A DNA stretch of 40,279 nucleotides from a virus (taxonomy: Duplodnaviria; Heunggongvirae; Uroviricota; Caudoviricetes). The stretch lies in IMG/VR virus record IMGVR_UViG_3300028584_001240; one strand, given 5' to 3'. Of this stretch, positions 1,543 through 19,610 are shown one piece after another. The position numbers and the translations under genes were made by a program. A model generated the notes under the pieces. The model was not told where the DNA came from. It made no database searches and saw nothing but the letters and a program-made list of their open reading frames with translations. The stretch's first letter is position 1. The number at the start of each line of letters is the position of its first letter.

Positions 1543-1700
1543 ATGAACTACCCCGCCCTGAAGGACGGAGTTTCTTTATATTATAGCAAGCTGTTGGTCG
1601 CTGACGTTCATTATCAGCAGACTACCATCATACCAATCCGTCAGCAACCCTTTAACAGCTTGCCTTTTGACTGCTCTTGCTACATATTGACCCTTTTCTA
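1543..1700 (-). ncRNA. Predicted omega/reRNA scaffold of TnpB overlapping the tnpB 3' end and right end (5' boundary uncertain)
   Basis: Nested inverted repeats GCAAGCTGTT(1586-1595)/AACAGCTTGC(1654-1663) and GCTGACG(1600-1606)/CGTCAGC(1639-1645), followed by the right-end hairpin. The position matches known TnpB guide scaffolds. Confidence 0.62.
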
Positions 1701-3318
1701 ATGTATGTAACGAATCTCTAGAAACTTTCGTCCAGATCCTATCATAGATGTTCCGACTTGCGTTTTTATCCGCATCACCTATGAATCCACAAACTAAACA
1801 TTCAAAGTTTCTTCCATTGCGACTTGTGTGTTCTACACACTTGCAATTTGAGCAAGTCTTTGATGTATAACTTGGTGTGGTTACATGCACTCTTATTCCA
1901 CGATGATTAGCTTGTTCTTTAAACCAAGTTTTGATACTTGATAATCTTAACAAGCGAATCATTTTGGAATATTTGATATTCAATCCTTTGTCAATGATGT
2001 GTGAAGCTACACATTGACTAAGATCTAAATCTTCTAAAACAATATCTTCGATACCGTTATTTATAAATTGTGTAATAATTTCGGAGATGAGTTTTTTGAA
2101 ATAAAACTCAACACCCCTAAGTAATTTGCCTAATTCGGCTGTTTGTAAAGCATTGAGATTATTATATCCACGTTTGTTGAATTCAAGTAGTTTATTAACG
2201 ACTTGTTCAACATACGTTCTATCATAATCAATCATTTCTTCTCTGTCATGATAAGCAATCGTACAGAAGTTTGAAGCAACGTTTAAATCTATACCACATA
2301 GTTTCTGTTTATGAATAACGCTATTTTTAGCGAGTGGTTTAAAATATTCATGTTGGTCATCATAGGTTAAACCAATATTAACTCTACCATTTTCGCTCAA
2401 TTTTACATAATGAATAGTATCAAGAGAAATGTTTTTGAATTTCTTATGATAAGCAGAATTGTAGGCCAATGGAATATTAATAGAATCTTTACCAAGTTTG
2501 AAACAGTACCAATACTTATGTCTTAATTCATCATTTTTATAGACATAAGATATTTGTGTTTTTCCGATTCGAGGAATCTTCATGTAAGACCCAGTAGAAT
2601 ACTCAATAAGTTTCACTTTTTGAACTATTCGATCTTTTTTATTAAGAACAAGTTGTTTAAGTCTCGGCCAATATTTAGATTGACGGACTTGTTGAATTTC
2701 TTTATTAAAAGCTTCAATCTTTTTTATTTTCGCTTGATAGAGTGGTGTAGCTTGAATGTCTTCTTTCACGACAGGAAAAGACTTTAAAGCAGAATCAAGC
2801 ATGGAATCATCACAATAGAGTAAGAAATTCAAGACTCTAATAAATGGAGTGTTAGAAGTAAACTCTATTTTCATAGATTTTACATCACCATTTTTAATAA
2901 TCTTACCATTTTTCAATGTGAGATTCTTTTTATAATATTCAAAAGAAATAGAATTATTGTTTTTTATGCCTTCTTTAATACCATTCTCTTGAATTTTAAA
3001 AGATTGATTTTTAATAAGTGTATCAATGGCGTTTGAGTAAAAATCAACTGTTTGTTGAAATATTTTTTGAATTTCCCAAGAATAGAGTTGGTTGTGCTTA
3101 AAATCTTTAAAGTGAGTGAGAAGAATTTTTTTAGATTCTCGATCTAGCAACATTCTTAGATGATTGAAAATATGTCGAGATATTTTGTTTTTGAATTTTT
3201 TAACTCGTTTGAAGTGATTTTTAAGGATCGTCTTTTTGTCTTCGTTCATTGAAGAGTGAGAAGAAATACGTTTAGCGATGAGATTAGTGTCAGCATTTTT
3301 AGTAGAACCGAAAGACAT
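1576..3318 (-). CDS. tnpB: RNA-guided endonuclease TnpB, unusually long (580 aa)
   Basis: RuvC-I CGIDLN, RuvC-II IVLEDL, zinc finger TSKTCSNC...FECLVCG, RuvC-III DADKNASRNI; the D-E-D triad is intact. SD AAGGA and a TTGATT...TGTTATTAT promoter lie inside the left end. Confidence 0.9.
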   Translation of the reverse strand: MSFGSTKNADTNLIAKRISSHSSMNEDKKTILKNHFKRVKKFKNKISRHIFNHLRMLLDRESKKILLTHFKDFKHNQLYSWEIQKIFQQTVDFYSNAIDTLIKNQSFKIQENGIKEGIKNNNSISFEYYKKNLTLKNGKIIKNGDVKSMKIEFTSNTPFIRVLNFLLYCDDSMLDSALKSFPVVKEDIQATPLYQAKIKKIEAFNKEIQQVRQSKYWPRLKQLVLNKKDRIVQKVKLIEYSTGSYMKIPRIGKTQISYVYKNDELRHKYWYCFKLGKDSINIPLAYNSAYHKKFKNISLDTIHYVKLSENGRVNIGLTYDDQHEYFKPLAKNSVIHKQKLCGIDLNVASNFCTIAYHDREEMIDYDRTYVEQVVNKLLEFNKRGYNNLNALQTAELGKLLRGVEFYFKKLISEIITQFINNGIEDIVLEDLDLSQCVASHIIDKGLNIKYSKMIRLLRLSSIKTWFKEQANHRGIRVHVTTPSYTSKTCSNCKCVEHTSRNGRNFECLVCGFIGDADKNASRNIYDRIWTKVSRDSLHTLEKGQYVARAVKRQAVKGLLTDWYDGSLLIMNVSDQQLAII

Positions 3319-4831: not shown

Positions 4832-4856
4832 ATGGCAAATATCTGTGGAGAATGCC

Positions 4857-5774
4857 ATGTTTAAAATCTATCCAAATCATCTTGAAGTTAATGGTCTTTT
4901 GAATACGTTTCAAAACGATTTTAAATTCAGTGATTTCAAAGAAGAAAACTACGCTGACAGGCATGGTTATGTCTTTAAAACTGTATATGAAGCCACTTCA
5001 CAAGCAGGTCAACGGGATATTGAAGTGACATTCATGAACCCACTCAAAACACATAAAAATCAAACACAACAGAAACATAAGATTGCCAAGCTAGTCTTTG
5101 TTGATAATGAAGTACAAGTATTCCACTCTGACAAGATCAGAAATGATGTTAGAACTATTGTTCGTATGTTAGAAACCATGTACACACCTAATTTTGATAA
5201 AATTACTGAAATCATGGATTGGTTCATTGAAGTAGGAACCCAAGCTGGCGTTATTAACGTAGTCGATAAAAAATACTACAAAAAAAGCATGGAATCTCAT
5301 GTTTTATCTCATCATTATGACAAAAAAATTCACATGACAGACCAAAACATTGCAGATGTATATTTTAACAATGTCCTACAAAAAGGCGATGGAGTCCAGT
5401 CAAAGCATTTTAAGAAATCTTACATCAATGTGGATTTTATCTACTTGGTGCATTCTGATAACACAATGCACCCTTATTTTAAACTGCGGTTGCCATATTT
5501 TGAAAATAAGAAAATCAGTTGTGTTCTCTCGATGAAAGGAGATAAATGTTATTTCTTTTTGGATGATGGTCATTTAGACAAATACCACATTGACCAACAA
5601 ACACCAGAAGCATTGACTGAATGTAATATCAAAGACCTGTTCACACAACTCTTTGAGAAGCAAATCAAAAATACAATTTCTACTCGCTTGAAAATTAATA
5701 AAACAGATTTGAAAGATTTAAACATTAGTGACTTGAAAGAATATTTTGTTCTTGTTGAAATGGTGAACATTTAA
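4857..5774 (+). CDS. Paralog family A, copy 1 (unknown function)
   Basis: GGAG SD then ATG at 4857. Family motifs YxPNFD, FNNVLQKG, FKKSYINVDFIYLV, PYFKLRLPY; tail DLKEYFVLVEMVNI. Confidence 0.85.
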   Translation: MFKIYPNHLEVNGLLNTFQNDFKFSDFKEENYADRHGYVFKTVYEATSQAGQRDIEVTFMNPLKTHKNQTQQKHKIAKLVFVDNEVQVFHSDKIRNDVRTIVRMLETMYTPNFDKITEIMDWFIEVGTQAGVINVVDKKYYKKSMESHVLSHHYDKKIHMTDQNIADVYFNNVLQKGDGVQSKHFKKSYINVDFIYLVHSDNTMHPYFKLRLPYFENKKISCVLSMKGDKCYFFLDDGHLDKYHIDQQTPEALTECNIKDLFTQLFEKQIKNTISTRLKINKTDLKDLNISDLKEYFVLVEMVNI

Positions 5775-5810
5775 ACTTTTATCGTAATCAATAATTATTT
5801 GGAGCTATTT

Positions 5811-6719
5811 ATGTTTAAAAAATACAAAAATTGTGAAGAGGTTAATAAACTAGTTGAACAAGTTTCAACCACGTTTAATTTTATCACATTTTATGAAGAA
5901 AATCATAAAAGCTATGAGCGAGATATTGGCTCCACTATCTATAGTGCTAACACTGATGATAATTGGAAACTGGTTGTATCATTCAATAACCGTTTTCGAA
6001 GCAAACATGATCAAAAACATTATTATCCTGAAATTAGATTCGAACGCACTGTATCAGATTATCTGACGGCTATAAAACTAGACAAGGTGGCTGAACTCAC
6101 TGAACTATTTCAAAATAACTATGCTCCTGATTTTGATCAAGTTCGTAACCTTATTGATATTTTTATAAAACAAGGCATTGATAGTGGTATGTTTAATCAT
6201 GTGAAATTAAAAGATGAAACGCAACATATCAGCAACTACTTTGGTATGCACAAGTATTATAATAAGATATCATTTAATGACACTAATTATGCGACTGTCA
6301 TGTTAAATAAAGTGCTTCAAAAAAGTAATTGTTCTTTAGGTCGTTCATTCACGAAATCTTACATCAATATAGAAATCATTCACTTAGTCACATCAGATAA
6401 TGAATTGAAACCTTACTTTAAGATTCGACTGCCGTATTCAGCAACAAAGAAAGTGACCTGTATCATTCCATTGAGCAGAAGCTCTAAAATGTATATGGCC
6501 GAAACAGATAATGTGTTAAAAGAAAAATATGTGGACACCATTAAAGAAGAAGTATCAATGGACGACAAAGCTCTATCAGCATTCTTTGAAAAAGAACTAC
6601 AAAACGAAGTCAAGAACGTGATTGTGGGAGCATTAAAAATTAAGAAGTCTGAATTAGATGGTTTATCAAATGGTGAATTAAAAGAGTATTTTATTCTGGT
6701 TGAAATGGTTAATATCTAA
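5811..6719 (+). CDS. Paralog family A, copy 2
   Basis: Same motifs; tail ELKEYFILVEMVNI. Confidence 0.85.
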   Translation: MFKKYKNCEEVNKLVEQVSTTFNFITFYEENHKSYERDIGSTIYSANTDDNWKLVVSFNNRFRSKHDQKHYYPEIRFERTVSDYLTAIKLDKVAELTELFQNNYAPDFDQVRNLIDIFIKQGIDSGMFNHVKLKDETQHISNYFGMHKYYNKISFNDTNYATVMLNKVLQKSNCSLGRSFTKSYINIEIIHLVTSDNELKPYFKIRLPYSATKKVTCIIPLSRSSKMYMAETDNVLKEKYVDTIKEEVSMDDKALSAFFEKELQNEVKNVIVGALKIKKSELDGLSNGELKEYFILVEMVNI

Positions 6720-6802
6720 AATAGTCTATCAAATTAACCGTATACAATAGCATTTATTGTTTTTAATGTTATGATATTTATATTAATAATTTGGAGACTG
6801 TC

Positions 6803-7744
6803 TTGTTTGAAAAACACCATAATCATGAAGAAATAAATCAATTGGTTGAATCATTCAAACCGATATTGAATATTTCTGAATTCGCTGAATCAAAAAATAA
6901 GTGGCATGATTCAATAGCCTATGTGGCAACTACTGACGATAATTGGAGTATTACAGCAACGTTTGAAACAGATAAAACCAGAGGTGATGCTGCTAAATAT
7001 TATTACCCTGTTGTAGAATTTGAAAAAAACAGAAAACAAGATCATTCTGACTACAAAGGTGTTCAAAGACCATCAACACCTGATGAAGAAATCTCTAACA
7101 GACTACAAGCAGAAAAAATAATGGAACACTTTCAGAAAATATATAAACCTGATTTTAAAAGAGCTATGGAGATAATTGAAATCTATATTCAACAAGGTAT
7201 TAACACAGGTATCTATAATAACGTGAAAGTAGTGCCACATAATGGAGACGTTAGGACACAATTTTACAGGTATGAAAACACCCGTATTGGTTACAATAGG
7301 TTATTTTTTAACAGTAGGGTTGCTGCAAAAATAACTTTTAATAATGTGCTGCAAACATTACGAGCAAATGAAACGAAATTTAAAAAATCTCATTTAAGTA
7401 TAGATTTCTTGTATCTCGTTAGCAAAGACAATAAAATTAATCCATACTTCAAAATTAAATTGCCCTACTCATCACACAAAAAAATACACTGCATTCTTTC
7501 TTTTGATTGCTCAAAAATGTATTTTGTCAGTGAAGACAGTCATTTGAAAGAAGACTATATTGACAACCTTAAAGAACACCCAACTGATAATGCTTATTTA
7601 GAATCATTCTTTAAAGATAACTTTAAAAAAGAAATAATAAATGTTATTTCAAAAACATTAAAAATAAAAAGAACTGAATTGGTTAAAATGACCGATGATG
7701 AATTAAAAAGTCATTTCATTCTAATAGAAATGGTAAAGTTTTAA
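6803..7744 (+). CDS. Paralog family A, copy 3 (TTG start after GGAG)
   Basis: Same motifs; tail ELKSHFILIEMVKF. Confidence 0.82.
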   Translation: MFEKHHNHEEINQLVESFKPILNISEFAESKNKWHDSIAYVATTDDNWSITATFETDKTRGDAAKYYYPVVEFEKNRKQDHSDYKGVQRPSTPDEEISNRLQAEKIMEHFQKIYKPDFKRAMEIIEIYIQQGINTGIYNNVKVVPHNGDVRTQFYRYENTRIGYNRLFFNSRVAAKITFNNVLQTLRANETKFKKSHLSIDFLYLVSKDNKINPYFKIKLPYSSHKKIHCILSFDCSKMYFVSEDSHLKEDYIDNLKEHPTDNAYLESFFKDNFKKEIINVISKTLKIKRTELVKMTDDELKSHFILIEMVKF

Positions 7745-7872
7745 CTTAACTTTTATGAAACACAATAAAAGATCTTTAAAAAGGTCTTTATTAAAAAGCT
7801 CGTAATTTACATACGATGGTATTTGTTATTTTTCATGTTATGCTAATTGTATAACCTATATTGGAGTATAGA

Positions 7873-8796
7873 GTGTTTAAAAAATATGATTTTCATGTAG
7901 AAAGTAATAATTTAATTGAGCTATTCAAACCACTTTTAAATTTTGAAAAATTTACCGAAATTGATGCTGGTTTTGATGGGATAAATTATAGTGCTGAAGC
8001 CAGTGACAAATGGAGAATTGTCATCAATTTTCCACCTCGATTTGAGAAACATTGTTGGACTGTCGGAAAATCAGCATCTATTACATTCAAAAATTATGAG
8101 GAAAAATACCGTTATGTCACGTTAACCAACGATGGAGATCTCGATATTAAAAAAGATGAATTAACAGAAGAAGATCGAGCCATAGAAAATAAAAGAGTAG
8201 AAGAATTTATTAATTATTTCCATAAACTTTATAAACCTAATTTTGACAGAATGATAAATATTCTTGAAATTTTTACCAAGCAAGGTTTAGATTCTGGAAT
8301 ATTTCAAAAGATTACTCTAAAAAAATATGAAAGACATTCAAGAACACATATACATGGAGTTTATAATCCAATTTATGCAAGTATAAATTTTAATAACATT
8401 CTTCAAAGTTTAAGATCTGGTGAAACTAAGTATAAAAAATCTGTCATGTCAATAGATTTCATATATCTCGTAGGTAGTGATAAACAAATTATGCCCTATT
8501 TTAAAATTAGGCTCCCTTATACATCACATAAAAAAGTAAACTGTATTATATCTTTTGATTGTTCAAAAATGTATTTTACTAAAACTGATCATGAATTTCA
8601 ACTTAACTTCATTGATCATTTAGAAGCTCATCAAACGGATGATGAGTACTTAAATTTATATTTCAAAAACATTTTTAATATTGAGGTAATAAACTCAATT
8701 TCAAAAACCCTAAAAATGAAAAAAGCAGATCTAAAGAAGTTATCACAAGATGAATTAAAAGATTATTTTGTTATTGTTGATATGATTAAATTTTGA
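7873..8796 (+). CDS. Paralog family A, copy 4 (GTG start after GGAG)
   Basis: Same motifs; closest to copy 3 (LRxxETKxKKS, CIxSFDCSKMYF); tail ELKDYFVIVDMIKF. Confidence 0.82.
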   Translation: MFKKYDFHVESNNLIELFKPLLNFEKFTEIDAGFDGINYSAEASDKWRIVINFPPRFEKHCWTVGKSASITFKNYEEKYRYVTLTNDGDLDIKKDELTEEDRAIENKRVEEFINYFHKLYKPNFDRMINILEIFTKQGLDSGIFQKITLKKYERHSRTHIHGVYNPIYASINFNNILQSLRSGETKYKKSVMSIDFIYLVGSDKQIMPYFKIRLPYTSHKKVNCIISFDCSKMYFTKTDHEFQLNFIDHLEAHQTDDEYLNLYFKNIFNIEVINSISKTLKMKKADLKKLSQDELKDYFVIVDMIKF

Positions 8797-8803
8797 ATAA
8801 ATT

Positions 8804-8831
8804 AAAAGACCTTCCAAAAGGTCTTTTTTTT
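8804..8831 (+). terminator. Intrinsic terminator
   Basis: AAAAGACCTT-CCAA-AAGGTCTTTT plus T-run. A related hairpin follows copy 3 at ~7764-7792. Confidence 0.8.
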
Positions 8832-8897
8832 ATTGTAAAAACAATAGCAATCAATATTTATTTATGATACAATTATTAAATATTTTTGGAGTCTATT

Positions 8898-9827
8898 ATG
8901 TTTAATACCTATCCGAACCACCCAGAAGCCAACCATCTAGTCACTCTGTTTTCAGGCGTGTTTAATTTTGTGGAATTTGATGTAAAGGTTAATTCTAATA
9001 CCGATATGTGTTTTTGTTCTAGCGTCTATACAGCAATAACCGATGATAATTGGGCTTTAATTCTCACATTTTATAACAATAAGAATTCAAAAGAAGATCA
9101 AAAAGTCTATTATCCAGAAATTAAATTTAGACAACTGGGCGAACGTGTTCGTAATTTTGACGAAGAACAACATAAAGAAAGAAGATTAAAAAATAAAGCA
9201 ATTGCTGACTTTTTGCAAAAGAAATATAACCCAGATTTTGAAAGAATGATTAAAGTTCTTAAACTATTCGTTGAAAAAGGAATTGAATGTACTTTATTTA
9301 AAAGTCTTGCAGATAGAAAATATAAAAAAGTGATGAAAACTCACCTTAACATAAATCATTATTCTGGAACTATTACTATAGCTGACAGTAACTTTGGTAC
9401 TGTGACTTTTAACAATATCCTACAAAAAGGAGAGAAGGGTTATCGCGGCGAAACTCATTTCAAGAAATCCTACATTAGTGTATCTATTGACTTTCTTGCT
9501 CACTCAGATAACACAATGCACCCTTATTTCAAAATAAGATTACCGTATTCAGAGTCTAGAAAAGCAACCTGTGTAATTCCATTGACAGGAAAGGCTATTG
9601 TCTACTTCATGGCAAACGATGACAAATTGAAAAGAGAATGCATTGATACGTTGCCTTCAATTTCAATGGATGAAACAGATTTAAAAGATTTTTTTGACAA
9701 AGAGTTTTACAAAGAAATGAAAACGGCTATTTCTAAAACACTGAAAATTAATAAGTCAGATATGGATGGAATAACACCAGAAGAATTGAAAGAGTATTTT
9801 GTGCTTGTTGAAATGTTAAAAATATAA
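8898..9827 (+). CDS. Paralog family A, copy 5
   Basis: Same motifs; tail ELKEYFVLVEMLKI. Confidence 0.85.
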   Translation: MFNTYPNHPEANHLVTLFSGVFNFVEFDVKVNSNTDMCFCSSVYTAITDDNWALILTFYNNKNSKEDQKVYYPEIKFRQLGERVRNFDEEQHKERRLKNKAIADFLQKKYNPDFERMIKVLKLFVEKGIECTLFKSLADRKYKKVMKTHLNINHYSGTITIADSNFGTVTFNNILQKGEKGYRGETHFKKSYISVSIDFLAHSDNTMHPYFKIRLPYSESRKATCVIPLTGKAIVYFMANDDKLKRECIDTLPSISMDETDLKDFFDKEFYKEMKTAISKTLKINKSDMDGITPEELKEYFVLVEMLKI

Positions 9828-9851
9828 AAATGAACTACTTTGGAGATTGTT

Positions 9852-10775
9852 ATGTTTAAGAAATATAAAAACTATGAAGATGCTAACACTATACTCAAAT
9901 TATTTGAACCTTTATGTAACTATGTAAAATATGAAGAAGAATATTACGATGGTTATAGTGGGTATTCCTCGGAAAAATACATAGCACATATACAAGACAA
10001 TTGGAGTTTAGTCACACAATTTTATGGAAAACATCAAAATCATACAATAAAAAAACACTTTTATCCTTATGTCACATTCGAAAAAGATATGAAATCAAAA
10101 ATGTCATATTTTAATAAGGATGCTGTAGCTGAAAGGCATCAAAAAAGCAAAGAGGTTGCGGAATTCCTTCAAAATCTATATACACCTGATTTCGATAAAG
10201 TCTTCGATGTTCTTGATCTTTTTATTGAACAAGGGCTTAATTCTGGAATGTTTAAGTCCGTTAATGTAAAGAGATACAAAAGACACATGACTTCTCATAT
10301 GCATATCAACCATTATCATGGGTCAATTTGCTTGTGGGATAAAAACTATTCCAGTATCACCTTTAACAATGTTCTGCAAAAAGGTGCTGGTAAAAATGGA
10401 ACACATTTCAAAAAATCATTCATCAGCTTAGGTGTCGTTCATTTAGTGGATTCAAACAATGATGTGAAAGCTTACTTCAAAATTAAATTATCCATGTCAG
10501 CCAACAATAAAAACACATATGTTATTCCAATCAGCGGTCAGGACATCATGTATTTGGTGGGTGATGAAGATTCATTAAGAGATACGCCTATTGATAAAAT
10601 ACTATCAATGCCCATAAAAAAAGAAGCGTTAACAGCCTATTTCAAGATAGAAATTGAAGATGAAATAAAAAAAACTATTTCTAGAACATTAAAAATAAAG
10701 AAAACAGAGTTAAATAATTTGTCACCAGATGAATTGAAGGATTATTTTGTACTTGTTGAAATGATTAAAATATAA
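9852..10775 (+). CDS. Paralog family A, copy 6
   Basis: Same motifs; tail ELKDYFVLVEMIKI. Confidence 0.85.
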   Translation: MFKKYKNYEDANTILKLFEPLCNYVKYEEEYYDGYSGYSSEKYIAHIQDNWSLVTQFYGKHQNHTIKKHFYPYVTFEKDMKSKMSYFNKDAVAERHQKSKEVAEFLQNLYTPDFDKVFDVLDLFIEQGLNSGMFKSVNVKRYKRHMTSHMHINHYHGSICLWDKNYSSITFNNVLQKGAGKNGTHFKKSFISLGVVHLVDSNNDVKAYFKIKLSMSANNKNTYVIPISGQDIMYLVGDEDSLRDTPIDKILSMPIKKEALTAYFKIEIEDEIKKTISRTLKIKKTELNNLSPDELKDYFVLVEMIKI

Positions 10776-10832
10776 AATAATGGCTTGTTACATAATTTTA
10801 TGATACAATAAATCATTATTTTGGAGCAGATT

Positions 10833-11735
10833 ATGTTTAAAAAAATGTTAAATAGAACAGAAGTTAACTATTTTGTTAAATCAATGTCACCCACACTTAA
10901 ATTTAATGAGTTTTTTGAAGAAAAACAAGAATCATACAGCAATTTAGGAAATCCTCTTTATACCGCTATCACCGATGATAACAATTGGCGAATGGATATT
11001 ACATTTAATAACAGATTAACCAGCACGCAAGAAAAAAAACATTATCACCCTGAAATTACTTTTAAATCAAATGTAATTGCTATGGGATCAATTGTGAAAC
11101 AAAAAAGAAATGCGTTGGTAATTCATTTTCAAAACGCCTATAACCCTGATTTTGATAATGCATTAAATATTATTGATATATTTATCAATAAAGGACTTGA
11201 TTATGGTTTAATTAATAATGTTGAATTCAAAAAATATACAAAACATATTAGCACTCATTTTGTGACTGACAATAATGATAGTTATATAAGATTCAAAGGA
11301 AAAAATTTAGTTACTGTGGGATTCAATACGTTGCTTCAAAAAGGAACAGGATCTCAAAACAATTATTTTAAGACATCTTATATCAATATCGACATCATTC
11401 ATTTAGTTGAACCTGATGAGACAATTAAACCTTACTTTAAAATCATGCTGCCTTACACTTCAAACAATAAACTTACCTGCATCATAGCAATCAATAACCC
11501 AGAAAAAATGTATATTACTGCCAATGATATCCCATTGAATAACAATTTTTTACGAAAATTGAACAGTGTAGACATGAATAAGAAAGCATTAGAAGATTTT
11601 TTCGAAAATCAATTTAAACATGAAGTCAAAAATGCAATTTGTGAAATATTACAAATGAGACAGTCAGACTTATATGATATGGAAAAAGAAGATTTAAAAG
11701 AATACTTTGTGTTAGTTGAAATGGTCAAAATCTAA
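10833..11735 (+). CDS. Paralog family A, copy 7
   Basis: Same motifs; tail DLKEYFVLVEMVKI. Confidence 0.85.
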   Translation: MFKKMLNRTEVNYFVKSMSPTLKFNEFFEEKQESYSNLGNPLYTAITDDNNWRMDITFNNRLTSTQEKKHYHPEITFKSNVIAMGSIVKQKRNALVIHFQNAYNPDFDNALNIIDIFINKGLDYGLINNVEFKKYTKHISTHFVTDNNDSYIRFKGKNLVTVGFNTLLQKGTGSQNNYFKTSYINIDIIHLVEPDETIKPYFKIMLPYTSNNKLTCIIAINNPEKMYITANDIPLNNNFLRKLNSVDMNKKALEDFFENQFKHEVKNAICEILQMRQSDLYDMEKEDLKEYFVLVEMVKI

Positions 11736-17348: not shown

Positions 17349-18251
17349 TTATTGGTCGATAATTAATGTGTGGACTTTCAGATCCTCACAAATTTCTATC
17401 ATGGTTAAAGATCCTTGTTTGTTTTTCTTCATTCCATACACAGCACCTGTATCTATAAAGAACTGATTACCCAACAGTAATGGTTTCTTAACAGGTGTGT
17501 GTCCATGAAAGGTATAGGCTATATTGTCGATATAACTTTGTGGATGTAATTTTCGTTTAAATTTTTCGATGATGTATCTAAATGAGAATGATATCCCATG
17601 CTTGATGTAAGGTAATGTTTTTCTAGTCGTAATGATTCTGTATAAGGTCGTTCTATTCCATAAGCCATCTTTAATAAATTTAATGTAGGCTTTTCTCGCA
17701 AAAGCGATACCATTCTTTTTTAATTCTCTATAAATACGCTTTCTCCCCCATAACGCATCTCTAATCACACTACCAGAATCAGTAATAGAACTCATTTCAT
17801 ATGATAGGTTAGCTGCAGTGAGATAGTGTTTGAACGCATTCCAGTCATTGAACTGGGTAGGGACTTGGGCATGAACCAATCCAATAGGGCCAAGACTGGT
17901 TTCTATTTCAATAGCAATAGGTAAGGTTTTAATAATATCCAGACATTTTTCTTTTTGTTTCTTGCTTAAATGAGTTACCCAATCTTTTGAATACGATAAA
18001 TGACCAGTGAGCAACATGGTTTCATGATTACCCAATACAGCGAAAAACCAACTCTGGTTATTAAGATAAAGCACTTCCAGTGATTTTGGGCCACGATCTA
18101 TTAAATCACCAACAGAAAATAATCTATCAATGTTTTTATCGAAGTTTACGGATTCGAGAAGTTTCATTAAGGCGTCATACATACCATGTATATCACCCAC
18201 AATGAAGTCTCTGCCTTTTTCATTTTTTGCAAATGATTGTAATTGATACAT
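17349..18251 (-). CDS. Calcineurin-like metallophosphoesterase, PphA/lambda Ser/Thr protein phosphatase type
   Basis: Motifs VGDIHG, VGDLIDRGP, LGNHE, HGHTP, IDTGA; basic ~70-aa insertion. Confidence 0.88.
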   Translation of the reverse strand: MYQLQSFAKNEKGRDFIVGDIHGMYDALMKLLESVNFDKNIDRLFSVGDLIDRGPKSLEVLYLNNQSWFFAVLGNHETMLLTGHLSYSKDWVTHLSKKQKEKCLDIIKTLPIAIEIETSLGPIGLVHAQVPTQFNDWNAFKHYLTAANLSYEMSSITDSGSVIRDALWGRKRIYRELKKNGIAFARKAYIKFIKDGLWNRTTLYRIITTRKTLPYIKHGISFSFRYIIEKFKRKLHPQSYIDNIAYTFHGHTPVKKPLLLGNQFFIDTGAVYGMKKNKQGSLTMIEICEDLKVHTLIIDQ

Positions 18252-18377
18252 TAAACAAACCTTTTCTAGTTTATTTTAATATCTTATGATATTTTTAAGG
18301 ATTGGTCTACAAGAATGTTTTGAATTAATAAGATTTGAGAGAATTTAAAACAAAAAAGAACAACATCGTGTTGTTCT

Positions 18378-18776
18378 TTAAACTTTTGAAGTGATCTTTT
18401 GCTGATTACCCATGAAATTTTTCAAAGTGTTATTGACGTTTACGGTTCTTCGACCATCAAGGTCTTTAGAGTTATAAACATAATAATTACCATCACCATC
18501 TAAAATAAAGATTTCATCAACTTTTTTAGCGTCAATTTTTTTGACAACTTTATTCCAAGATTGATTACCACCAGTAGTGCCTAGTGCAACTTTGTAAGAT
18601 TTTTCATTATCTTTATAACGAGAGCTTTTACACTCCACTTTCTTTAAAACACCATCGGTATCAACAATTAAATCATAATAAGGAGAATGAGTTAAAGGCT
18701 TACTGACAATACATCCTAGTGATGTATAATAAAAGGTTGCAAACGATTCACATGTGTCACCTTGCTCTTTATTCAT
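18378..18776 (-). CDS. PD-(D/E)XK endonuclease resembling group I intron-associated homing endonucleases (I-Ssp6803I type), free-standing
   Basis: QGDTCE...G.IVSKP....YDLIVD......VECKS pattern; GAGG SD before ATG 18776. Confidence 0.72.
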   Translation of the reverse strand: MNKEQGDTCESFATFYYTSLGCIVSKPLTHSPYYDLIVDTDGVLKKVECKSSRYKDNEKSYKVALGTTGGNQSWNKVVKKIDAKKVDEIFILDGDGNYYVYNSKDLDGRRTVNVNNTLKNFMGNQQKITSKV

Positions 18777-18792
18777 AGGCACCTCTATAAGA

Positions 18793-18849: not shown

Positions 18850-18937
18850 TGGCGGAAGCTGTGGGATTCGAACTCACGGGGCTATTACACCCGACAGTTT
18901 TCAAGACTGTTGCCTTAAACCACTCGGCCAAGCTTCC
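18850..18937 (-). tRNA. tRNA-Ser(UGA), CCA encoded
   Basis: Cloverleaf with ACAGT-CTTGAAA-ACTGT anticodon arm, long variable arm and TTCGAAT T-loop. Confidence 0.95.
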
Positions 18938-18956
18938 ATATACGGTATAACTAATT

Positions 18957-19045
18957 TGGTGAACGCACAAGGATTCGAACCTCTCGCCAACCGACCTGTC
19001 TTATAAAGGCGTCCGCTTTACAGGCGGATGACAGGAAATGCGTCC
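18957..19045 (-). ncRNA. Atypical tRNA-Tyr(GUA)-like RNA lacking a conventional D arm
   Basis: 7-bp acceptor GGACGCA/TGCGTTC plus ACCA; TCCGC-CTGTAAA-GCGGA anticodon arm; TTCGAAT T-loop. Only 10 nt lie between acceptor and anticodon stems, and CCTGTC there is complementary to GACAGG 3' of the anticodon arm. Confidence 0.8.
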
Positions 19046-19071
19046 ATTGATGTTACTATTGTATCTAAATT

Positions 19072-19159
19072 TGGCGGAAGCTGTGGGATTCGAACTCACG
19101 GAGCTGTTACACTCGACAGTTTTCAAGACTGTTGCCTTAAACCACTCGGCCAAGCTTCC
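19072..19159 (-). tRNA. tRNA-Ser(UGA), CCA encoded
   Basis: Near-identical to 18850-18937; differs only in the variable arm, including a compensatory G-C/A-T pair. Confidence 0.95.
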
Positions 19160-19180
19160 ATATACTATTTACATCTAATT

Positions 19181-19264
19181 TGGTGGTTAGTGATGGATTC
19201 GAACCACCGTGCCTTTCGGATTGGATTTACAGTCCAACGCAATCAACCGCTCTGCCAACTAACC
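19181..19264 (-). tRNA. tRNA-Tyr(GUA), CCA encoded
   Basis: TTGGA-CTGTAAA-TCCAA anticodon arm, class II variable arm, A73. Confidence 0.95.
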
Positions 19265-19296
19265 ATAAGGTTTTTACATATTTTTTTTCATAAAAT

Positions 19297-19380
19297 TGGT
19301 GGGTGCTGATGGATTCGAACCACCGTGTCTCTCGAAGTCGGTTTACAGCCGACCGCATTCGGCCACTCTGCCAAACACCC
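19297..19380 (-). tRNA. tRNA-Tyr(GUA), CCA encoded
   Basis: GTCGG-CTGTAAA-CCGAC anticodon arm, class II variable arm, A73. Confidence 0.95.
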
Positions 19381-19403
19381 ATAATACTTTTTACAACTAA
19401 ATT

Positions 19404-19491
19404 TGGAGGAAGATGTGAGATTCGAACTCACGGAGCTGTTACACCCTTCAGTTTTCAAGACTGACGCCATCGGCCACTCGACCAATCTTCC
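19404..19491 (-). tRNA. tRNA-Ser(UGA), CCA encoded
   Basis: TCAGT-CTTGAAA-ACTGA anticodon arm and long variable arm. Confidence 0.95.
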
Positions 19492-19544: not shown

Positions 19545-19610
19545 ATTCTATCAACTTCTTTCGTCTTTGTCAACAACTATTTTAAATTATTTTCAACTAT
19601 TTTCTTTTTA
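19545..19610 (-). promoter_or_regulatory. Strong sigma70 promoter of the tRNA operon with AT-rich UP-like element
   Basis: TTGACA (19568-19573), 17 bp, TG-A-TAGAAT (19545-19553); A-tracts upstream. Confidence 0.85.

Follow-up and report, generated by a model that had tools for sequence, protein, structure and literature searches.

Nearly every known cytoplasmic tRNA is a cloverleaf with a D hairpin. Among described systems, the allo-tRNAs come nearest to the gene family reported here, together with the (8/4) tRNA-Ser and tRNA-His found in bacteria and alphaproteobacterial phages (Mukai et al. 2017, PMC5389517). Those tRNAs and the family have in common a 12-bp branch made of an 8-bp acceptor stem plus a 4-bp T stem, a long variable arm, a 6-bp D-stem-like helix, and a place in phage tRNA clusters, and both are missed or mis-scored by standard finders (PMC5389517). 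In allo-tRNAs, an ordinary D hairpin (long stem, tetraloop) lies 5' of the anticodon arm, whereas in the family it is the variable-arm loop that supplies the second helix strand, giving a pseudoknot; no Tyr species is described for allo-tRNAs in PMC5389517.

Three other systems invite comparison. Bacterial tRNA-Sec (RF01852) resembles the family in its 8-bp acceptor stem, 6-bp D stem, and long variable arm, but its anticodon is UCA and not GUA, and the family is without a D hairpin and has a T stem of 4 bp, not 5. The metazoan mitochondrial tRNA-Ser(AGY) type likewise runs from the acceptor stem to the anticodon stem without a D hairpin; D-armless mitochondrial tRNAs, however, are truncated (about 55-65 nt), have neither a long variable arm nor a replacement helix, and depend on specialized mitochondrial factors (PMC4013460, PMC7609411), while the RNA described here is full-sized (89 nt) with its D stem rebuilt in trans. 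The BMV TLS-Tyr of plant RNA viruses is a pseudoknotted, non-cloverleaf viral RNA that presents a tyrosine-accepting end to TyrRS, but it is a 3'-terminal element of an RNA genome with no codon-reading anticodon arm (PMC10870377, PMC11791061); sequence and host are unrelated to those of the family, and the resemblance is in principle only.

Here, we describe a noncanonical gene predicted to encode tRNA-Tyr(GUA), 89 nt long with an encoded CCA, on the minus strand at 18957-19045 of a viral DNA stretch of 40,279 nt (IMG/VR record IMGVR_UViG_3300028584_001240; this whole stretch is called the window). The assignment was made from the sequence and from the score of a covariance model, R1. Canonical class II tRNA-Tyr(GUA), such as that of T5 and a pair of genes on the same array and strand of the window, shares with the window gene the CUGUAAA anticodon loop, G1:C72, A73, a variable-arm stem, the T loop, and an encoded CCA. 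What sets the canonical tRNA apart from the family gene is its D hairpin, its 7/5 branch, and its small variable-arm loop.

Layout and neighborhood of the window gene

All parts of the gene are on the minus strand. It begins with the 8-nt 5' strand of the acceptor stem, GGACGCAU (19038-19045), whose partner lies at 18961-18968. The place of the D arm is occupied by CCUGUC (19030-19035), the 5' strand of a helix that we call P, which a single nucleotide, A17 (19029), joins to the anticodon stem. The anticodon arm (19012-19028) has a 5-bp stem, UCCGC/GCGGA, and the loop CUGUAAA, with the anticodon GUA at 19019-19021. Abutting its stem is CGCC (19008-19011), the 5' strand of a variable-arm stem, V, which pairs with GGCG (18985-18988). 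The variable-arm loop so enclosed contains, in order, a linker, UUUAUAA (19001-19007), which is 7-9 nt long and A/U-rich throughout the family; the 3' strand of helix P, GACAGG (18995-19000); and loop L3, UCGGUU (18989-18994), with a conserved GG resembling G18-G19 of the D loop. The V 3' strand is followed by unpaired A62 (18984), the T arm (18969-18983; 4-bp stem GAGG/CCUU, loop UUCGAAU), and the 3' end (18957-18968), made up of the acceptor 3' strand, GUGCGUUC, discriminator A73 (18960), and CCA (18957-18959). The acceptor 5' strand and both strands of P were placed by covariation (for the P 5' strand, also RNAalifold), the anticodon and T arms by sequence and covariation, the V 5' strand by its pairing, the linker, L3, and the V 3' strand by comparison within the family, and the 3' end by sequence.

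The gene thus has an end-closed acceptor stem, the discriminator, CCA, a 5-bp anticodon stem, a 7-nt anticodon loop, U33, purine 37, and a UUCGA-type T loop, all of which are canonical; its T stem is 4 bp instead of the usual 5. The D hairpin is absent, with only 10 nt between the 7-bp acceptor stem and the anticodon stem, and the strands of helix P are separated by the anticodon arm, the V 5' strand, and the linker. A U8.G78 pair extends the acceptor stem to 8 bp and leaves 4 bp for the T stem. An earlier, sequence-only reading had transcribed the gene without error (an exact match to the reverse complement of 18957-19045) and had reported an intact acceptor stem (GGACGCA/UGCGUUC), A73-CCA, GUA arm, and T loop with no normal D arm, all of which can be read in the sequence. 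The stems that it drew stand, but its secondary structure left out the variable-arm stem, and hence the pseudoknot, and the 8/4 branch.

The gene belongs to a tRNA array (18850-19491, minus strand; ARAGORN and Rfam) in the order Ser(UGA), Tyr(GUA), Tyr(GUA), Ser(UGA), the odd gene, Ser(UGA). Its members are all class II tRNAs with diversified stems, three of them Ser(UGA) and, counting the odd gene, three Tyr(GUA); the canonical tRNA-Tyr(GUA) genes lie at 19181-19264 and 19297-19380 (minus strand). DNA contigs from related phages have joints that skip single repeat units (e.g., 19268 to 19391 in run X2), which suggests that copy number varies. Upstream of the array, at 19545-19573 (minus strand), a consensus scan gave a promoter-like site, TTGACA-17-TAGAAT with an extended -10 TG (11/12, a pattern match only). 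Directly downstream (17349-18782, minus strand) are genes for a PD-(D/E)XK endonuclease (PF11645) and a calcineurin-like phosphoesterase. PHROG matches of the phosphoesterase include a NinI-like phosphatase and an RNA-ligase family, and the downstream pair may represent a homing nuclease plus an enzyme for RNA end healing, tied to tRNA damage.

Two further features of the window were noted. A 580-aa ORF (1576-3318, minus strand) with a Cas12f1-like TNB domain (PF07282) and transposase PHROG matches is predicted from these matches to be a TnpB/Cas12f-like protein. Seven tandem ORFs of 304-317 aa, mostly with TTG starts (4845-11735, plus strand), may be a paralogous gene array; the two examined against Pfam and the one examined against PHROG had no match.

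Standard tools did not recognize the gene. ARAGORN made no call on 18957-19045, and Rfam RF00005 reported nothing there either at the gathering score or in a permissive scan (E up to 10); the best Rfam match was tRNA-Sec (RF01852), at 19.1 bits against a cut-off of 47. Such a poor finder score had been foreseen from the sequence alone. A copy from the bacterium Lacipirellula (see below) was likewise missing among RF00005 matches at E up to 0.001.

Relatives and covariation

Pseudomonas phages Lyrsu01-03 and Rembedalsseter proved, from distant blastn matches, to carry unannotated look-alikes immediately upstream of the gene for the small terminase, the Rembedalsseter copy having CCCCAC/GUGGGG in place of the window's CCUGUC/GACAGG. 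No close relative of the window itself turned up by blastn among named phages, and two other members, compared with named phages, gave nothing or only Rhizobium phage RHph_N3_2 (MN988526.1:39892-39955, unannotated, a blastn match only, 78% over 72% of the query).

Viral sequences were searched with a pattern constrained only in the anticodon loop, the T loop, and the unusual spacing between them, which gave at least 119 viral loci; among the matches listed, 62 distinct sequences had the same architecture, including the window and two Pseudomonas-phage loci, and R1 was built from this set. Bacteria were covered by a single scan of one-genome-per-species contigs, which yielded 86 loci with 78 distinct members, most from Planctomycetota chromosomes and metagenome-assembled genomes and a few from Alphaproteobacteria and other groups; these members are mostly situated in tRNA arrays of Planctomycetota. 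The relatives thus number 139 distinct sequences among the matches listed (61 from viral contigs or named phages and 78 from bacterial genomes), drawn from many lineages with a GC range of 0.44-0.73. Because the searches fixed the anticodon loop CUGUAAA (GUA included) and the T loop GGUUCGANUCC, sequence conservation in these two loops is not independent evidence. A pattern on the linker motif CTGTAAANNNNNCGNNTTWATAAG was rejected as too narrow (one true match and 12 chance matches). The FelixO1-like phages phiEa21-4 and HY02 were also set aside: their weak blastn matches are T-arm similarity only, and R1 finds no member there.

R1 scored the window gene at 80.6 bits (E 6e-24) and the 61 distinct viral relatives, among the matches listed, at 63.7-96.7 bits, compared with at most 36.4 bits for canonical tRNAs of the same loci and only about 34 bits for the window's two canonical tRNA-Tyr. 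The window copy has every element of the R1 family: the 8-bp acceptor stem, a 2-nt linker, the 6-nt P 5' strand, one nucleotide, the anticodon arm, a V stem enclosing the P 3' strand and a YGG motif, and the 4-bp T stem. The unannotated Pseudomonas-phage copies confirmed by R1 (L001:463-550 in Lyrsu03 and L002:513-600 in Rembedalsseter) adjoin the small terminase gene; a TTGACA-17-TATACT site precedes that of Rembedalsseter.

Helix P shows changes on both sides at all six pairs, with 99.5% of cells paired in the 62-sequence alignment and 97.6% in the genomic copies, and RNAalifold recovered both it and the 8-bp acceptor stem from a plain MAFFT alignment that had not been fitted to the structure. 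The pairing of CCUGUC with GACAGG, proposed in the sequence-only reading, therefore covaries, with compensatory changes at nearly every pair, and is kept at 97.6-99.5% across the 139 relatives among the matches listed. For the whole structure, 97.3-97.8% of cells were paired, values reached by none of 500 shuffles, and slid controls were about 48% paired. Seven acceptor pairs and all five anticodon-stem pairs covary. An eighth acceptor pair, between nucleotide 8 and the nucleotide usually numbered 65, is paired in 139/139 copies with five pair types, while the usual T-stem pair 49:65 is unpaired in 53 of 62 copies and formed in only 16%; the acceptor/T branch is thus 8/4, as in allo-tRNAs.

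Stem V reaches at least 4 bp in 95% of the 139 relatives, against 49% with shuffled partners, and occurs in 24 pair combinations; on alignment A4, which was not fitted to V, its third pair (37-67) was CG in 43 sequences, UA in 29, and GC in 4. As the P 3' strand lies inside the V loop, P and V cross, which makes a pseudoknot. RNAalifold also paired columns 18 and 36 of alignment A1 (the nucleotide at the P/anticodon junction and the first V nucleotide) in 48 of 59 sequences, predominantly G.U; the anticodon stem would then reach 6 bp, in competition with the first V pair. The window has A and C at these columns, which do not pair.

Directly after the P 3' strand, 127 of 139 copies have UGG or CGG. 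The P 3' strand together with this YGG resembles the 5' strand of a D stem followed by G18-G19, from which we infer a contact with the T loop; in many members, only 0-3 nt lie between the conserved GG and the V 3' strand, and given this gap the canonical G18/G19-T-loop contact may be geometrically strained. A resemblance noted in the sequence-only reading, 10 of 13 positions shared with the D-arm segment of the neighboring tRNA-Tyr, is real, but about 0.7 such matches are expected by chance (estimated for two 85-nt sequences), and by itself the resemblance counts for little. The broader proposal of rewired connectivity held up: given the D-stem-like strand 3' of the anticodon arm, the YGG that follows it, and covariation in 139 sequences, the RNA is a rewired tRNA rather than the remnant of a decayed one.

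The window's own lineage gave the same picture on a smaller scale. Compared with the window copy, the gene of a relative in DNA runs X1 and X2 has 13 substitutions, which include four compensatory doubles (A7-U79 to C-G, U18-A34 to G-C, C20-G32 to G-C, and C22-G30 to U-A), three of them in the anticodon arm, and a change of G2.U84 to G-C. In its P 3' strand, the substitutions C48>U and A49>G maintain pairing with the 5' strand as G.U.

The window array holds duplicated Ser and Tyr genes, as would suit a decaying pseudogene of a duplicated tRNA-Tyr whose stems arose by chance, and RNAfold on the single window sequence prefers another pairing, a nested fold with an unremarkable z of -1.49. Single-sequence folding is blind to pseudoknots, which lie outside its model, and the nested fold is overruled by covariation; it was therefore set aside. 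The 139 distinct relatives have compensatory changes in every helix, and such changes recur within the window's own lineage. As far as computation goes, the pseudogene reading is refuted by covariation, and we give it practically no weight. On comparative grounds, the family is best described as a conserved, pseudoknotted, and previously unannotated structural class of tRNA. A full-text literature search, mainly of journals open without subscription, found no paper that describes the fold.

A probable tyrosine tRNA

Within the fetched stretches, canonical tRNA-Tyr is missing in all 38 arrays that have at least 14 amino-acid types, the next most frequently missing type being Cys (14 of 38), and six arrays have 19 types with Tyr alone missing. 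A canonical tRNA-Tyr(GUA) occurs at the same locus in 4 of 62 cases of the viral set among the matches listed (L060, L089, L095, and the window) and in 0 of 78 cases of the genomic set. G1:C72 and A73 are invariant (139/139 copies); the established bacterial TyrRS identity set comprises A73, G1:C72, G34/U35, and a long variable arm (see PMC9976931). The family gene is on the strand of its neighbors 99.6% of the time, and it encodes CCA where 95% of neighbors encode CCA and does not where only 5% do. The filling of the Tyr slot, the TyrRS identity set, and the CCA convention point to a working tRNA, and tRNAs with an 8/4 branch are active in Escherichia coli translation (PMC5389517).

Judged on these features, the window gene is probably a functional tRNA-Tyr. 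A point against this is that TyrRS reads the orientation of the variable arm, which the pseudoknot could alter. With two canonical tRNA-Tyr in the window, moreover, the window copy is not needed to fill the Tyr slot there.

In the mechanism that we propose, the window gene would be transcribed together with the neighboring Ser and Tyr tRNAs from one promoter and matured alike. Its acceptor stem (8 bp) and T stem (4 bp) would form one continuous stack of 12 bp, in the manner of allo-tRNAs; two nucleotides, the 6-nt strand, and one nucleotide lead to a normal GUA anticodon arm, followed immediately by a variable-arm stem of 4-5 bp whose big loop holds the A/U linker, the P 3' strand, and the YGG. 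Helix P (6 bp, one strand supplied by the variable loop) would stack on the anticodon stem at the D-stem position, and the product would presumably be charged by the host TyrRS and decode UAY codons. Metatranscriptome contigs X15 and X16 span the neighboring Ser genes and not the window gene; being contigs, they are uninformative on expression.

The sequence-only reading had suggested, as one possibility, a decoy or inhibitor. Such an RNA would be a tRNA-Tyr mimic or sponge that occupies a targeting nuclease or host factor without delivering tyrosine. The window gene does keep a tRNA-Tyr surface (GUA loop, A73, variable stem) on an altered body, it adjoins two canonical tRNA-Tyr that already provide decoding capacity, and overexpressed phage tRNA-Tyr partly shields host tRNA-Tyr from the Septu defense system (PMC13096335). 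Being the sole tyrosine candidate in 38/38 rich arrays is, however, a consistency of replacement unexpected of a decoy, and the gene is also kept in Planctomycetota chromosomal arrays. The G1:C72, A73, and CCA convention serve aminoacylation and not a nuclease that cuts the variable loop, and an anticodon change in a phage tRNA-Tyr abolished rescue from retron-Eco7, from which the authors of that work concluded that decoding was required (PMC11555353). With the Tyr slot filled, the identity set invariant in 139/139 copies, and CCA matched to the neighbors, a decoy is disfavored and, in our estimate, improbable.

As tRNA finders miss the gene, tyrosine is under-counted in tRNA inventories of phages and arrays, and arrays credited with 19 of 20 amino acids may actually be complete. 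The Planctomycetota copies were also considered as housekeeping tRNA-Tyr, and this was rejected for Lacipirellula limnantheis, since its canonical tRNA-Tyr lies elsewhere and the odd gene is inside a tRNA array. The housekeeping tRNA set of this species has one canonical tRNA-Tyr, and the odd gene is part of a separate 29-gene array otherwise without Tyr and Cys (strain I41, genome G001, array L250, C1:5955540-5960638). Dense chromosomal tRNA arrays of this kind in Planctomycetota, with 23-29 genes, stand apart from the housekeeping tRNA set. Neorhodopirellula pilleata (G002, contig C14, 153 kb) has three arrays (L267-L269) with one odd tRNA-Tyr each; the third copy (L269), changed in both its anticodon loop and its T loop, may be decaying.

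Other anticodons occur on the pseudoknotted 8/4 fold in viral contigs. An Arg(UCU) version was found at L293:6418-6504 (minus strand), L302:6391-6478 (minus strand), and L295:3053-3141 (minus strand), and a Trp(CCA) version with discriminator G73 at L290:3512-3603 (plus strand), in a stretch of 11 kb that comes from a 524-kb contig; this stretch has 44 ARAGORN tRNAs and no canonical Trp. Pattern scans found no G34 anticodon other than GUA in the same fold.

Variable-loop nucleases and retention of the fold

Two PtuAB systems, Septu EcB88 and retron-Eco7, cut tRNA-Tyr within its variable loop. Phages get around this with a tRNA-Tyr of their own, either supplied or amplified, and that of T5 withstands retron-Eco7 by virtue of a distinctive, altered variable loop (PMC13096335, PMC11555353). 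The tRNA-Tyr of phage T6 is also cleaved by Septu, so that phage origin alone gives no resistance. Since these PtuAB nucleases cut the tRNA-Tyr variable loop, the idea of a cleavage-resistant tRNA, raised in the sequence-only reading beside the decoy, now has a concrete rationale, with the relevant type of nuclease plausibly acting on the variable loop and not on the anticodon. A remodeled and tied-down variable arm could make the RNA a poor substrate for PtuAB-type nucleases (Septu, retron-Eco7), a prospect that we place somewhat short of an even chance. Tyrosine supply would then persist for the phage once host tRNA-Tyr had been destroyed by nucleases that cut the variable loop.

Several small phages carry the family gene as their sole or nearly sole tRNA (Lyrsu03, Rembedalsseter, L028, L048, L081, and L124). 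Evasion is a plausible fit to these phages, to the window's diversified, class II-only array behind a promoter-like site, and to the PD-(D/E)XK nuclease and calcineurin-like phosphoesterase genes after that array. Against it, Planctomycetota chromosomal arrays carry the fold, and a need for phage counter-defense is not obvious there. Versions of the scaffold with Arg(UCU) and Trp(CCA), though rare, show that its use is not confined to tyrosine.

The family may also be a neutral frozen accident, in which case it would be a functioning tRNA-Tyr that owes its odd fold to inheritance with mobile tRNA arrays, the fold having no role in evasion. It moves with tRNA arrays in phages and Planctomycetota, the rare Arg and Trp versions show that the scaffold is not bound to tyrosine biology alone, and other noncanonical 8/4 tRNAs occur in phage arrays without a known link to defense (PMC5389517). 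Suggestive on the other side, though not decisive, are the maintenance of so deviant a fold across GC contents of 0.44-0.73 and many lineages, its retention as the sole tRNA by several small phages, and its concentration on the one tRNA that nucleases are known to attack in its variable loop (PMC13096335). We consider neutral inheritance unlikely, while taking it as a serious competitor. The most far-reaching reading, which we put well short of an even chance, is that of a new class of elongator tRNA, pseudoknotted and 8/4, for Tyr and rarely Arg or Trp, which would be fully active in translation and selected for escape from nucleases that recognize or cut the variable arm.

The range of shapes known to be accepted by RNase P, the CCA-adding enzyme, TyrRS, EF-Tu, and the ribosome would be widened by a full-sized tRNA whose core is rebuilt as a pseudoknot and which is apparently the sole tyrosine tRNA of many phage and mobile arrays. 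Septu and retron-Eco7 cut within the tRNA-Tyr variable loop, which makes the family a natural test of how the shape of a tRNA body bears on sensitivity to immune nucleases, and the unusual scaffold is of possible interest for genetic-code engineering. Cultivable carriers are Pseudomonas phages Lyrsu01-03 and Rembedalsseter, Rhizobium phage RHph_N3_2 (by its blastn match only), and L. limnantheis I41.
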